Part shown: positions 53 to 56,535 of the stretch, piece after piece | Layout: each line of letters begins with the position of its first letter | Position numbering within the stretch: the stretch's first letter is position 1 | NCBI GenBank assembly: GCA_951406725.2 | Contig: OX597824.1 | Location: 85,560,001 to 85,624,000 of the forward strand | Reading direction: 5' to 3' | DNA from: Octopus vulgaris | Taxonomy: Eukaryota | Length of the DNA stretch: 64,000 nucleotides | The notes under the pieces: generated by a model | What the model was told of the DNA's origin: nothing | What the model saw: only the letters and a program-made list of their open reading frames with translations | Database searches by the model: none | Program-made: the position numbers and the translations under genes

Positions 53-506
53 CGAAAAGTCACTGATATCGAAAAGGTGTAAACAGGCAATAATAAATCT
101 CAGAGCGAGGCATAAACAGTAGCTGCACGACATCGTGATGTATATTTTCCACTTAAATCTGGCTAACCCCTAAGGGTGGATGCTACTGTAGCTTGTAGCC
201 CCAGGAGGACATCTCCTCCAGCTGGCTATTGACACACTTTCTGTGCTCTATCAGTATTTGCAAAGGGGAGTCATCCTTCCCGTTTTCAATCAATGATACA
301 TACGGACTCGAGTTTCTGGATATTGACCCGTCATCGGCGTGTGACAATCAGCGGTTGTCGATGAAAAGTAGGCCTCCCTCTGCAAACATATATCCTTTTT
401 CCAGTGACGAAAAGTCACTGATATCTAAAAGGTGTAAACAGGCAATAATAAATCTCTGAGTGAGGTATAAACAGTAGCTGCACGACATCGTGAAGTATAC
501 TTACCA
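53..506 (-). mobile_element. Retrozyme-like non-coding element, ~1.3 copies of a 355-nt unit with a type I hammerhead
   Basis: Direct repeat 53-~145 = 408-~500 (period 355); HHR at 299-343; homologous along its length to the 360-nt unit at 32720-33104; abuts (TA)n at 507. Confidence 0.8.
299..343 (-). ncRNA. Type I hammerhead ribozyme (CCGAUGA core variant)
   Basis: Minus strand: cacacg CCGATGA c-gggt-caat-atcc-a GAAA ctcgag TC cgtatg; palindromic stem III, GUC site, stem I extends further (tgat/atca). Confidence 0.8.
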
Positions 507-1289
507 TATATATATATATATATATATATCACCGTGATCACCGTGACCGACCAGGCTATCAGATGTTGCTACACATCGCTGGTCACAATGCGCTTTGCAT
601 TGTTTTAGCCTTCAAGTGACGCCAATAGAAAAAAGAGTGAGAGAAAGTTATGACGAAAGAGTACACTTATAAACTACGTATCCACTACGTTCACTATTAC
701 TTTTCTCGGATTTTACTGTTTAGATTGTCCAAAATGTCATAATTTAAAATACTAGAATATGATTTCAGACAGATTTGGCTGCTGTGTCTAACAGGAACGA
801 TTACATACAGACTCCGATGTTGGAAGCAGTTAAAAATGGAATGGTAGACAATTCTTGTATTTCACAATAATTTCATTTCAGTAACTAAGCCATTGTAGTT
901 CCGCAGTTTCTCAATTTCGATCTGCAAGATGAAGCTATAAAAAGAAAAGACACCGTTGCGGCTTTCGAACGATGAAATGATGTAAGGTGTTTTGTGAGTT
1001 CCTGGGTTACGAGTGCATAAACCAAACTTTTTCAATTAAATTGCAGAGTATTTTGCCATTTTATATCAGCAAACTTAAAACACCTTGAAAAAAAGAAAGA
1101 TGATTTATCAGGTCATTCCATAAATAATTTTAAAATACCTATTTTAAAATAACAACAGAACATATTAACTTAACCTTGTGTAGTTATCAAACAATAATTT
1201 ATGTTGTTGCAATATGTCTTAGCCAATTCAGAAACTGTTTTGTCCTTCTTAAGTAAGAACTGTCCACAGTGTATTGAAGACATATCATG

Positions 1290-2350
1290 CTTTAGGAGTT
1301 CAGAAAAAAGAAATAATGCAGCAGGAGTAAACCGAGATATTCATGGTGCTTATAGAAAGTATTGCTTAAACGAAAGAAACTGTAGACAGGAGTGTGATTC
1401 CATATTAAATGATGCTCTCCGAGCATGCCGTCTTGCTTAGTTTTTTTTTTTTTTTTTATCAGAACCCAATCGAAATAGAAATGTTACGATTGAAGAATTG
1501 ATTCAGAAGCTGAATTTAATCCAATCAACTGGAGTGTAACCAAAAGTTGAAAGTTGGAAGTAACCAAAAGTTGAAAAATGGGTCTCCCATAATTTTTTTT
1601 TTATCAGAACCCAATCGAAATAGAAATGTTACGATTGAAGAATTGATTCAGAAGCTGAATTTAATCCAATCAACTGGAGTGACTTGGAAGTAACCAAAAG
1701 TTGAAAAATGGGTCTCCCATAATTTTACACAAAACAACCGTGCAGCGTGTGTGAACAACTGCACTTCTCTACGCTGATGTGAATACATATCACCATTTTT
1801 AAATAGATAGGTGACTGGTGATGGAAAAAGGATAGTTTATAAGAATGTTAAGCAATGCAGAAAATGGTTTATTGAAGACGAACTGGCTAAACAACAGTCC
1901 AAAAGAGACCGTCTCAGAAAAATATTGGGGATTGTTTGATGGGACTATACAGGCGTGTTCCACTTTGAGTTGCAACAGACATTTCTACCGGTAGTTACAA
2001 TGTTTAAACAAATGCTTTGAAGGGGAAAAGCCTGCTTTAATAAATCACATAGGAGTTGTGTTCTTTCATGATAATGCATGCCCCGTACAGTAAAGATCAC
2101 GTACAAAAAGACTGAAAAACCTCTACTGGGAGAAAAATTACACACCCTTCTTATTTACCAGACCTTACTCCAACTAATTCATACATATTTCGAAGTTTAC
2201 AAAATCGTATTGATGGATTTGTTCTTAAAACACATGAAGAAATGGAAACTACTCTCTCTGCATTCTTTTTAACCAAATCAAAAGAATTTTACACAAATGT
2301 TATCAAGAAGCTGACAGATCGATGGAAGGAAGTCATGATAATAATTGTAA
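1290..2350 (+). pseudogene. Degenerate mariner transposase with internal tandem duplication (~1446-1720)
   Basis: Frame-broken motifs: NNAAGVNRDIHGAY..CLNERNCR (HTH), WVSHN, VTGDGKRIVYKN, HDNA, PSYLPDLTPT, KEFYTNVIKKLTDRWKEV. Confidence 0.85.
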
Positions 2351-3654
2351 TCATGAATGAATTTGAATGAAATAGGAAATTTAGAAACCTTGTCTTCTTG
2401 CTCAATATTTCGACATTACTTATGAGATGACATTGTATTCAGGAAATTGGTCTCCATAAGTGATATTTAACATCCGAAATATAATATTTGTCTTCTTAAT
2501 ATTGCAAATGATAATGACATGTTTGCCTACTCAAGTAAAAGCTAGTTCTCTCGAAAATATATGGACACTGTAGATAGGTAGTTTCAGCTATATTCATCAA
2601 TGCAATTTGGCACGTCGTTTTCAAACAATTCTGATTGAAACGTAGCATGAGAAAACAGAAGTATTGTAAGTGGAGCAGGTAGCTTCGACAATCCAGGTTA
2701 GGTGAACTTTTATCACTTCTATGACTTGTCAAAGAATGTTAAAGTTACATCTCTGTTTTTTTCCAAACTAATGAATTAATAATAAAAATTTATTTTCACA
2801 CTATTTGCTTAACAGAACGATAAACAGATCAAGAGAGAGGGAGAGAGAGAGACAGGGAGGGAGACGGAGATTGCAAAATTCAATAAACGTAAAATAATTA
2901 CAATCAAAATTAAGCTGTTTACCTTGGCAGAATCAGACAAAAATTGGAATCGGCTTGGTATTAAGTTCATTATAAATCCTCGGAAAATCCTCGTAAACGA
3001 AACACAGGTGCAAAAAACAAACATAAAAAAATATAAACTTGCTTCACACATGTAATTTAGTATTCATTGAATATAAGGAGTGTAGCCAATAATTTTCCCC
3101 ATTGGTTAGCGCGCCTTCTTATTTGTATGATTATTGCTGCTGATAATGTTGAAGTTGTTTTCGCTGATGATGAGGATGCTGGTGATGAAGTTGATCTTGT
3201 TATTTGACAGCAGCTATAGTTATTTCAGCCTAAATCAGGTGTGATCGAACGGGCTTTGGATCAAGAGCATTCCAACCAGCATCATCACCCTGCCCCTTTT
3301 CGCCCCCCTTTTAGGTAGTATACATATAAAACTATGTCTATTTTTCTTTTTTTTTCCAGACGGTCAGGAGTTACTTGGTGGAGATTTCGCTGCTATTTCT
3401 AGAAGGTCGGTCGAGTGACCATGTAGAAACTCTGTCGTTGGTTTGTAGCAATTTCATTGCGGTCACTGCTCTTTCACATTGCCGTTGTTTCAGTCCTTCA
3501 CTCTGATACCGCTGAGTTTGTCGTCGATGTTGGTGGTAATTGTGTTCTCGCTGATAAATATGTTTTTAGACACAATGCTATAATGACTGTTGGTGGAGGT
3601 TGATGTTATTCTTGTTATTGGTACTGATATAACTGTGGTGGCATCTGCTTCCGT

Positions 3655-4175
3655 TGCAGTTGTTGTTGTTGTTGTTGTTGCTGTTGTTGTTGTTGATGGT
3701 GATGATGATGATGATGATGATGATGATGATTATGATGATGATGATGATTATGATGATGATGATGATGATTATGGTGATAATGATGATGATGATGATGATG
3801 ATGATGATGATGATGATGATGATGATGACGACGACGATGATGATGCCGAGCAGGTGTTGTAGAATCCGATGTTGTTACGGTTGATATGCTGCTAAGTTAA
3901 TAATTTTCACATTTAAAAAAAAAAAATTTATTTTATAGTTTTGAAGCATGTGTAAACTGTAAGTGCATTTAATGCTGTCAATGTAGTTTTGTTAAAGTTG
4001 CTGCTGCTGCCCGGTGCTACTGCTGCTACTACTGCTGCTGCTGCTGCTGCTGATGATGATGATGAACGTAATGGTGACGTTGGTGTTGGTCGTAGTGTTG
4101 TTGTTGTTTGTGGTGGTGTTGGTGGTGGTTGTGGTGGTGGTGGTGGTGGTGGTGGTGGTGGTGGTGGTGGTGTGG
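3655..4175. repeat. Compound trinucleotide microsatellites (GTT)n/(GAT)n/(GCT)n/(GGT)n
   Basis: Visible directly; produce the poly-D/M/G pseudo-ORFs. Confidence 0.95.
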
Positions 4176-55087: not shown

Positions 55088-55384
55088 TAATTGATAAATC
55101 ACTATGGAAATGCATGAATATCATAATTCCATTACTCTTTAGCATTAAACAACAGGGTTATTCCTTTTGTTTCTCTTCTTTTCTGTCCCTTATACTTGTA
55201 TTTTAACCCAATCTTTTCTTCCACATAAGCAACTCTTATAAACAGGAGAATCACCACCGTACATCATGTACAGGTCTGATATTCATCTTCCGCTGGGAGA
55301 GAGTTCCTATCACATGCCTGACATATCTATGTAGATGTAAGTGTTTGCATATGTATCCTGTATATAGGAATACACGCTCATATC

Positions 55385-55843
55385 TCTCTCTTTACTCTTT
55401 ACTCTTTTACTTGCTTCAGTCACGTGACTGTGGCCATGCTGGAGCACCGCCTTTAGTCGAGCAAATCGACCCCATGACTTATTCTTTGTAAGCCTAGTAC
55501 TTATTCTATCAATCTCTTTTGCCGAACCGCTAAGTTACGGGGACGTAAACACACCAGCATCGGTTGTCAAGCGATGTTGGGGGGGACAAACACAGACACA
55601 CAAATATATACACACACATACATACATATATATATATATATATATATATATATATATATATATATATATATATATATATATACGACGGGCTTCTTTCAGT
55701 TTCCGTCTACCAAATCCACTCACAAGGCTTTGGTCGGCCCGAGACTATAGTAGAAGACACTTGCCCAAGGTGCCACGTAGTGGGACTGAACCCGGCCCAT
55801 GTGGTTCGTAAGCAAGCTACTTATCACACAGCCACTTCTACGC
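55385..55843 (-). mobile_element. SINE family C
   Basis: Full-length match. Confidence 0.9.
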
Positions 55844-56440
55844 ATATGTTTCCTTATGTGTACATATACGTGTGTGCTTGTATGTATACATGACTGCATG
55901 TATATATGTATATGTGTGTTTTATTCATGTTTTCAAATTATAATACGCTTCACTTTCTCTCAGTATTGAGCCTCCGGGAAACTTGTAATAACTGAAATTT
56001 GGACTATTGGTATAAAGTTCATTCCCCAAATACTTATAATTCTTATAATTTCGAACCAAAAATCACTGCGGCAGCTGGCAAGTCGACAACTGAAGTTGTA
56101 GTTTTGTACAAATGCCTTCTTCGTTAACGATGTAATTGTAGTCATATTTTATTTTGTTTATGTATTATAATCCGTGTGTGTATGTGTATATTGATATAGA
56201 TACATAAACACGAACATACATACATACACACATCAATCTATACATATTTGTCTTGGATAATTCCTTCCGGGCAATTTCACTTAAATCTTCTTATAGCTGC
56301 ATTGTGTACACACACAGATGCACGCACAATCAAGAACATAAACCTATGCAAATTCAACCACGTGCACACTCAATAACACACAGACACAAGGGCGCGCACT
56401 TACACATATACACTCAAAGAGTAAGCGGATCTCCGGCAGT

Positions 56441-56535
56441 TTGCCGATGAATATACCAATTTTCGGCTCAACCAAACTGTTTACAGTTCAAATAACAGTT
56501 TCCAGCAGCTGAGCATTGCATAGAAACGTGTACAG
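56441..56535 (+). ncRNA. Candidate hammerhead with long stem II (CCGAUGA variant)
   Basis: ttg CCGATGA a-tat-[~65 nt]-ata GAAA cgtg TA cag; short stems. Confidence 0.45.

Follow-up and report, generated by a model that had tools for sequence, protein, structure and literature searches.

A recurrent U4C core variant in predicted hammerhead ribozymes of several Octopus vulgaris retroelement families

Hammerhead motifs in the window

We analyzed a 64-kb stretch of the Octopus vulgaris genome (contig C11, OX597824.1, positions 85560001–85624000; the window) for hammerhead ribozymes that carry C instead of the consensus U at core position 4, here termed C4 and U4 motifs. The genome comprises 2.8 Gb in 227 contigs, and the window has a GC content of 37% and many microsatellites. 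A structure-aware hammerhead descriptor that permits any base at core position 4 finds five sites in the window, compared to a mean of 0.05 sites per 64 kb in 20 Markov-resampled windows. Four of them have C4 and one has U4. Followed through the genome, the sequences indicate that U4C is a real and recurrent variant at the level of families, in retroelements that appear active, with C4 as the consensus or major subfamily state in four families designated A1, A2, B and C.

Two of the C4 sites lie in one insertion of family A2. The type I hammerhead at 32888–32933 (+; core from 32894) has a U·U at 10.1–11.1, a palindromic helix III and a predicted cut after 32927, and an identical type I C4 hammerhead is present on the inverted arm at 32605–32650 (−; core from 32644). 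The minimal C4 hammerhead of family B at 9816–9850 (+; core from 9820) has an extra A after A9 and a four-base palindrome that replaces helix III. The type I C4 hammerhead of family C at 24934–24992 (−; core from 24988) has a long helix II, and the U4 hammerhead at 36643–36677 (−) belongs to a U4-subfamily copy of family B. A further type I C4 motif, in family A1 at 299–343 (−; core from 337, reading CCGATGA), is partly decayed. With two mismatches, in helix I and at the base of helix II, it falls below the thresholds of the descriptor scan, and it folds no better than shuffled sequences (z +2.1). Its relatives elsewhere in the genome have an intact helix I, so the 299 site is a somewhat decayed family member. 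The sequence at 56441–56535 (+) was rejected as a hammerhead: it is single-copy in the genome, fails the hammerhead core test and contains CCGATGA by chance, with helix II unpaired at its base and neither helix I nor helix III usable. The sequence-only reading that preceded this analysis had listed CCGA(U/C)GA with intact stems at all these places except 36643. That description is accurate for 9816, 24934, 32605 and 32888, but the stems are weakened at 299 and there is no hammerhead at 56441.

Bare C-N-G-A-N-G-A heptamers in the window have 17 C, 24 T, 47 A and 19 G in the second place. As C is not enriched among them, the folded sites alone count. One inverted insertion accounts for both 32605 and 32888, which lie on its two arms and thus represent a single event, and the independent C4 elements in the window are four, not six. 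The window also contains a U4 minimal hammerhead of another family at ~5797–5834 (−), absent from the earlier list. It adjoins, on the opposite strand, a decayed Penelope-like GIY-YIG endonuclease fragment with a CxxC linker (6259–6873, +; Pfam E 0.002, below cut-off), and a similar motif with C4 occurs once, at C1:10967147.

The core residues C3, G5, A6, G8, A9, G12, A13, A14, the pair A15.1–U16.1 and H17 are present in A1, A2, B and C. Three helices surround the core, with helix I open-ended as in type I hammerheads and paired changes in support; A2 lacks the type I consensus U4 and is classed as a variant, U4C being an accepted natural form. With E values of up to 10 allowed, Rfam gives no hammerhead match for any of four copies, two with C4 and two with U4. 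Since the U4 copies are missed as well, C4 is not the reason. For the whole window, no hammerhead is found among the 150 Rfam matches listed of 191.

Families with C4 and their history

The pattern counts given here cover the whole genome, and base states taken from rows are those of the first 100 rows listed, counted by eye. Family A2 has a 360-nt unit of 46% GC that is tandem, non-coding and contains one type I hammerhead, as in non-LTR (long terminal repeat) retrozymes. Position 4 is C in 1,197 exact pattern matches and A, G or T in none. With up to one mismatch allowed there are 1,250 matches, of which 53 carry a single mismatch within the 33 places compared, giving a divergence of ~0.13%, and copies on many contigs are completely identical over 162 nt. 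Core polymorphism is confined to the neutral position 7, which is C or T by subfamily. The A2 region folds with a z-score of –4.7. For the circular unit the predicted energy is –120.4 kcal/mol, compared to –87.4 ± 5.3 kcal/mol for 30 mononucleotide shuffles, and in the predicted circle the hammerhead forms across the unit junction.

An older retrozyme relative, A1, is represented in the window by ~1.3 units at 56–513 (−), with a unit length of ~350–355 nt. Its tandem, non-coding units with a type I hammerhead and a GC content below 50% also have the features of non-LTR retrozymes. A1 has 367 genome matches, with 60 C, 39 T and 1 A at position 4 in the rows counted, nine of the C rows coming from one array. 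The sister retrozyme of A2, A3, has a 359-nt unit with the canonical U4 and a G10.1–C11.1 pair (L107:2094–4765; L178), and builds the same tail-out arrays as A2. A joint pattern for A2 and A3 gives 1,259 matches, compared to ~1,200 for A2. In A1 and A2 a mismatch at 10.1–11.1 takes the place of the usual pair. A short piece of another A-type retrozyme relative lies in the window at 54953–55022 (+), and a distant A-type unit found in one copy elsewhere (L117:7600–8000, −) has, by eye, a U3–A8 covariant hammerhead with intact helices and a Schistosoma-like loop 2.

A midpoint-rooted tree of 28 A-type units requires three changes at position 4: one in A2, one in a clade within A1 and one in the window copy at 299. 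Calling these gains rather than losses leans partly on U4 being the general state. The C4 clade of A1 consists of nine short-branched copies (support 98/93) nested in U4 copies, and the 299 copy falls among older U4 copies outside that clade. The tree indicates that the C4 at 299 is independent of the C4 in A2 and in the A1 clade. The two retrozyme-like units of the window, whose common C4 had been an argument of the sequence-only reading, thus do not share it by descent.

Across ten A-type rows, base pairing holds in 93.8% of cells and both partners vary in 3 of 13 pairs, a count that treats helix III as a dimer palindrome and is inflated by the relatedness of the sequences. The other core positions are unvarying in these rows. 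The palindromic helix III is predicted to form self-dimers of –11.2 (A2), –10.7 (A1) and –8.3 (A3) kcal/mol, and no hairpin alone. These predictions are consistent with cutting as dimers, as animal type I hammerheads are described to do (PMC7229834; PMC4209133). By eye, the A families have an A as the last base of loop 2 and a U after the six pairs of helix I, as in PMC2632901, the two bases of a putative contact between the 5′ U of loop 1 and the 3′ A of loop 2.

Family B is a ~200-nt element that resembles the 3′ terminal repeat of Penelope-like elements and ends in (TA)n. A copy of its C4 subfamily lies in the window at 9741–9950 (+), and a copy of its U4 subfamily, holding the U4 hammerhead, at 36540–36750 (−). 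Genome-wide there are 4,419 C4 and 2,172 U4 pattern matches, mostly solitary, so the claim that one family holds both states, made from 9816 and 36643, is correct. In a tree with B2 as outgroup, built from the first ten rows listed per state on contig C1 and six others, the U4 copies are basal and the C4 copies nested; support is moderate, and a single long-branched U4 row falls inside the C4 group. CpG decay of C4 was rejected as the source of the U4 copies: they make up 33% of the family, far above the 2–3% decay at position 7 (C>T in 5 of 200 rows), and they are basal. The sequence-only reading had also argued that a T>C change creating a CpG runs against the usual mutational bias. This argument is weak, because CpG decay is low and because the neutral position 7 likewise carries C, which creates a CpG, in three C4 families and in A3, the sister retrozyme with U4. 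An association of C4 with a monomer-competent helix III was considered as well and breaks down in family B.

The sister family B2 (L155:7770–8030, L146, L159) is a Penelope-like 3′ end with a minimal hammerhead, which in L155 follows a GIY-YIG-type open reading frame (ORF). It has 7,884 matches, and in the rows counted position 6 is U (A6U) in 98 and C4 occurs in 2. In the search for autonomous partners, family B aligns with B2, and for A1, A2 and C the search gave no partner with a common 3′ end. The window itself holds a young, 5′-truncated Penelope-like element between (TA)n tracts at 41851–43917 (+), a near-identical piece of which is present in L063. Its ORF (41895–43541) encodes 549 aa with a reverse transcriptase (RT; Pfam RVT_1, E 5.5e-8) and a CxxC/GIY-YIG-like C-terminal end. 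All 55 genome matches of the hammerhead-like motif at its 3′ end (43694–43725) have U at core position 3, and they often occur as tail-out pairs.

Family C, at 24815–25190 (−; ends approximate), is an older dispersed element with ~85% identity between copies and a C4 consensus. It has 110 matches, and position 4 is C in 84, T in 14, A in 1 and G in 1 of the rows counted, and C in 23 of 25 copies that were fetched. Position 7 shows C>T in 16 of the first 100 rows, so the 14 U4 copies are compatible with CpG decay of a C4 master. A 1.94-kb tandem array that contains family C was rejected as an autonomous element, being a host duplication with no RT ORF in its unit; beside it lie frameshifted LTR-retrotransposon-like pol pieces (L167:135–1791, +; RT, RNase H and integrase by eye). 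Other features of the window are a full-length 5S rRNA match at 21511–21629 (−; 106.5 bits) and a 184-bp dispersed repeat, found as three tandem copies at 8362–8912 and in many more copies across the window.

A generic minimal-hammerhead pattern gives 11,501 C4 and 8,223 U4 matches in the genome, compared to 59 and 204 for the reversed-pattern controls. Among the matches listed, the C4 rows are nearly all family B or B-like and the U4 rows span many families. In a blind sample of 60 stretches of 10 kb (600 kb, contigs C1–C22), 17 of 18 exact-core hits have U4, seven of them in one array, and one has C4, although some of the long-helix-II hits may be chance; a homology search of the same sample finds three C4 and two U4 cores of family B. 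C4 is abundant by copy number and a minority by family. In the A1, A2 and B trees it is nested within U4 lineages, which suggests that it arose repeatedly. Counted per family, the consensus is not U4 (C4 in 1,197/1,197 in A2, 84/100 in C, 60/100 in A1 and a majority in B), and the proposal that C4 is something other than random decay is upheld for these four families. Core departures are common among the Penelope-related hammerheads of this genome, as seen in A6U, U3 and the 10.1–11.1 mismatch. The accompanying expectation that C4 would be commoner than other core substitutions therefore holds in part, A6U and U3 being fixed at family level too.

Anatomy of the A2 insertions and related systems

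The A2 insertion in the window (32393–33105) sits in a (TA)n tract and consists of two tail-out arms, 32393–32721 (−) and 32711–33105 (+), whose 3′ ends are at unit positions 218 and 178. We mapped 36 A2 loci, a non-random sample made up of 24 distinct loci among the 30 best matches and 12 arrays chosen from contig C1. Two tail-out arms are present at 23 of these loci, and 19 of the 23 end at unit positions 173–178 on one side and 218–222 on the other; the single-arm loci end at the same two places. A tail of ~44 nt is found at one end only, and the flanks are (TA)n. Penelope-like insertions are described as having a one-sided tail of 30–40 bp, inverted copies and (TA)n targets (PMC8557442). 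The fixed ends, one-sided tail, inverted and 5′-truncated arms and (TA)n flanks of A2 match these hallmarks, and the fixed 3′ ends and tail-out arms are direct anatomical evidence of Penelope-like mobilization. Because tail-out pairs recur genome-wide, an assembly artefact was ruled out for the inverted pair at 32605 and 32888.

The arrays reach at least 9.9 near-identical units, and both arms are mostly homogeneous. Locus-private variants are present in every unit of their locus (8/8 in L175 and 6/6 in L179), which points to a single-unit template. A few retrozyme arrays have unit variants with a longer period, alternating or of two units and more (L172, L016/L017 and, in A1, L052), and were possibly copied from multimeric templates. 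The 5′ junctions of A2 are scattered, with no excess at the predicted cut site: 19 departures fall within 8 nt before it, compared to 47 and 28 at two control places. The A2 template is continuous across the predicted cut site. Three runs from three studies, which we guess to be RNA, each yield one contig of 390–391 nt, corresponding to the unit plus 30–31 nt, with C4 unchanged, and a run from another organism also retains C4. Related sequence occurs in four other organisms, coded B–E; no record labelled as RNA was listed among those containing it, which speaks neither for nor against expression. An ADAR-like signature is not supported in the A2 arrays, as A>G makes up 5 of 20 distinct fixed variants and G>A and C>T lead the minor variants.

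Natural substitutions in the hammerhead core occur in other systems, and the viroid in which U4C was described is reportedly peach latent mosaic viroid. In that viroid, U4C lowers activity in vitro yet permits infectivity (PMC3088659, citing Ambros and Flores 1998). The substitution is the same, but in the viroid it is a sequence variant, whereas in the octopus genome it forms the consensus of retroelement families and has several origins. A natural A6C variant, at another core position and in a phage context, has low but detectable activity with a changed metal preference (PMC3088659; PMC7151607), so core variants can tune activity rather than kill it. The animal non-LTR retrozymes (PMC7229834; bioRxiv 10.64898/2026.07.22.740005) resemble A2 in their tandem 350–360-nt units, GC content below 50%, one type I hammerhead per unit, self-paired circle and palindromic helix III, and axolotl HHR_Amex2, as described, has the same U·U at the base of helix II and a two-pair helix III with a tetraloop. 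Unlike these retrozymes as described, A2 has C4 fixed across a whole young family, and the accessible parts of the two sources mention no position-4 core substitution. Family B resembles the Penelope-like minimal hammerheads of PMC4209133 in the extra nucleotide after A9, the G10.1–C11.1 pair and the palindromic 15.2–16.2. The same source reports a family-level core variant, U3–A8; unlike that variant, U4C and A6U here are non-compensated and fixed in subfamilies of thousands of copies. We found no report of family-level U4C in animal retroelements in the open literature, including a term look-up in the accessible text of PMC11014351 and PMC3376415, although the figures and supplements of PMC4209133 and PMC7229834, which mark core changes, could hold cases.

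Origin and significance of C4

Sequence, fold potential, copy numbers, repeated origin, fixed ends and homogeneous arrays are established. To explain them we favor, at slightly better than even confidence, a history in which C4 is the inherited state of several master elements with thousands of copies, forms a likely slower but still working hammerhead, and rose by hitchhiking under relaxed selection without being selected itself. By analogy with the natural core variants described above, C4 likely slows rather than stops self-cutting. Transcripts that read through tandem A2 units would undergo slow cutting, probably in dimer form via the palindromic helix III, and the cut units would be ligated into 360-nt circles. 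A Penelope-like reverse transcriptase and endonuclease acting in trans would nick (TA)n, and priming from both target ends at two fixed places on the RNA would allow the enzyme to copy round the circle, giving rise to the observed tail-out arrays of up to ~10 near-identical units. Family B, whose minimal hammerhead is dispersed and sits at a Penelope-like 3′ end, probably has little need of cutting, which would let core changes drift to fixation. The presence of A6U in B2, of U3 in the Penelope-like element and of the 10.1–11.1 mismatch implies relaxed constraint, and in the retrozymes the sequences indicate that the fold is kept.

Several points weigh against this explanation. In a deep mutational scan of one hammerhead, every single mutant of the CUGA turn had low activity (PMC9901934), and 8 of 9 Xenopus retrozyme dimers showed no cleavage in vitro (bioRxiv 10.64898/2026.07.22.740005). 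The genome carries no trace of cutting, and the junction data fit a ligated circle and an uncut multimer equally. The 390-nt contigs are also expected from tandem DNA or RNA, from which circles are indistinguishable, and the RNA nature of the runs is a guess. The lack of non-C4 copies in A2 is no sign of selection, as only ~1.6 would be expected. Pure drift is challenged by the fact that C4 is the derived, larger subfamily in three lineages (A1, A2 and B) and that no other single substitution recurred as often here.

Attenuation may instead have been selected: a slower C4 ribozyme would keep circles or multimers whole for multi-unit reverse transcription, so that C4 lineages repeatedly beat their U4 sisters. 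C4 is derived and the larger or younger state in A2 (compared to A3), A1 and B, arrays extend to ~10 units with reverse transcription passing through the cut site, and the periodicity of two units or longer in L172, L052 and L016/L017 is what incomplete cutting would yield. We nevertheless consider selection possible but doubtful, as the U4 sister A3 makes the same tail-out arrays (L107), families with A6U and U3 also expand, the independent events are few and U-to-C is a common transition, and circle stability would offer no obvious gain to the mostly solitary copies of family B. If instead C4 and the 10.1–11.1 mismatch abolished cutting, the elements would spread from uncut multimeric transcripts by template jumps, like hammerhead-less Penelope-like elements. 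This would agree with the cut site lacking a junction excess, with the fixation of A6U in B2, with the low in vitro activity of Penelope-like minimal hammerheads (PMC4209133) and with the ability of Naiad elements to make tandem and inverted insertions without canonical hammerheads (PMC8557442). A dead ribozyme is nonetheless unlikely in our judgment, given that the remaining core positions and the three helices are all conserved in A2 and in the C4 clade of A1, with both-side pair changes and longer palindromes. The restriction of A2 core polymorphism to position 7 agrees with this, weakly when taken alone (P ~0.5), the presence of locus-private variants in every unit points to a bottleneck of one unit, and natural U4C works in vivo in a viroid (PMC3088659). 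Copy-by-copy decay of U4 families after insertion may account for the 299 copy alone, and sporadic U4C does occur in 2 of 100 rows of B2, a U4 family. For the families it is refuted by the 1,197 to 0 count in A2 and by the C4 majorities in B, A1 and C, to which diagnostic bases are linked, and this leaves it practically no probability as a general explanation.

C4 is less surprising than the sequence-only reading held, since U4C had been described before, the two retrozyme copies acquired it separately and further core substitutions have become fixed as well. The suggestion in that reading that standard searches miss C4 applies to descriptors that demand CUGANGA, such as the cuganga descriptor of PMC8557442, and not to Rfam, which misses C4 and U4 copies alike. 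With more C4 than U4 minimal hammerheads by the generic pattern, censuses that require CUGANGA undercount. In a bolder version, which we offer as a tentative idea, U4C would have been selected independently at least three times in one genome, with a slow, dimer-dependent hammerhead preserving circular or multimeric templates for rolling-circle integration, and many of the most active animal retrozymes would thus be invisible to such searches.

What hammerheads do for Penelope-like elements and retrozymes is treated as unsettled in the literature (PMC8557442; PMC4209133; bioRxiv 10.64898/2026.07.22.740005). The fixed 3′ ends and single-template arrays of A2 provide an unusually clear trace of retrozyme integration. 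The octopus genome also offers matched natural pairs: a very young C4 retrozyme and the sister that has U4, two more families that each contain C4 and U4 subfamilies, and a family with A6U.

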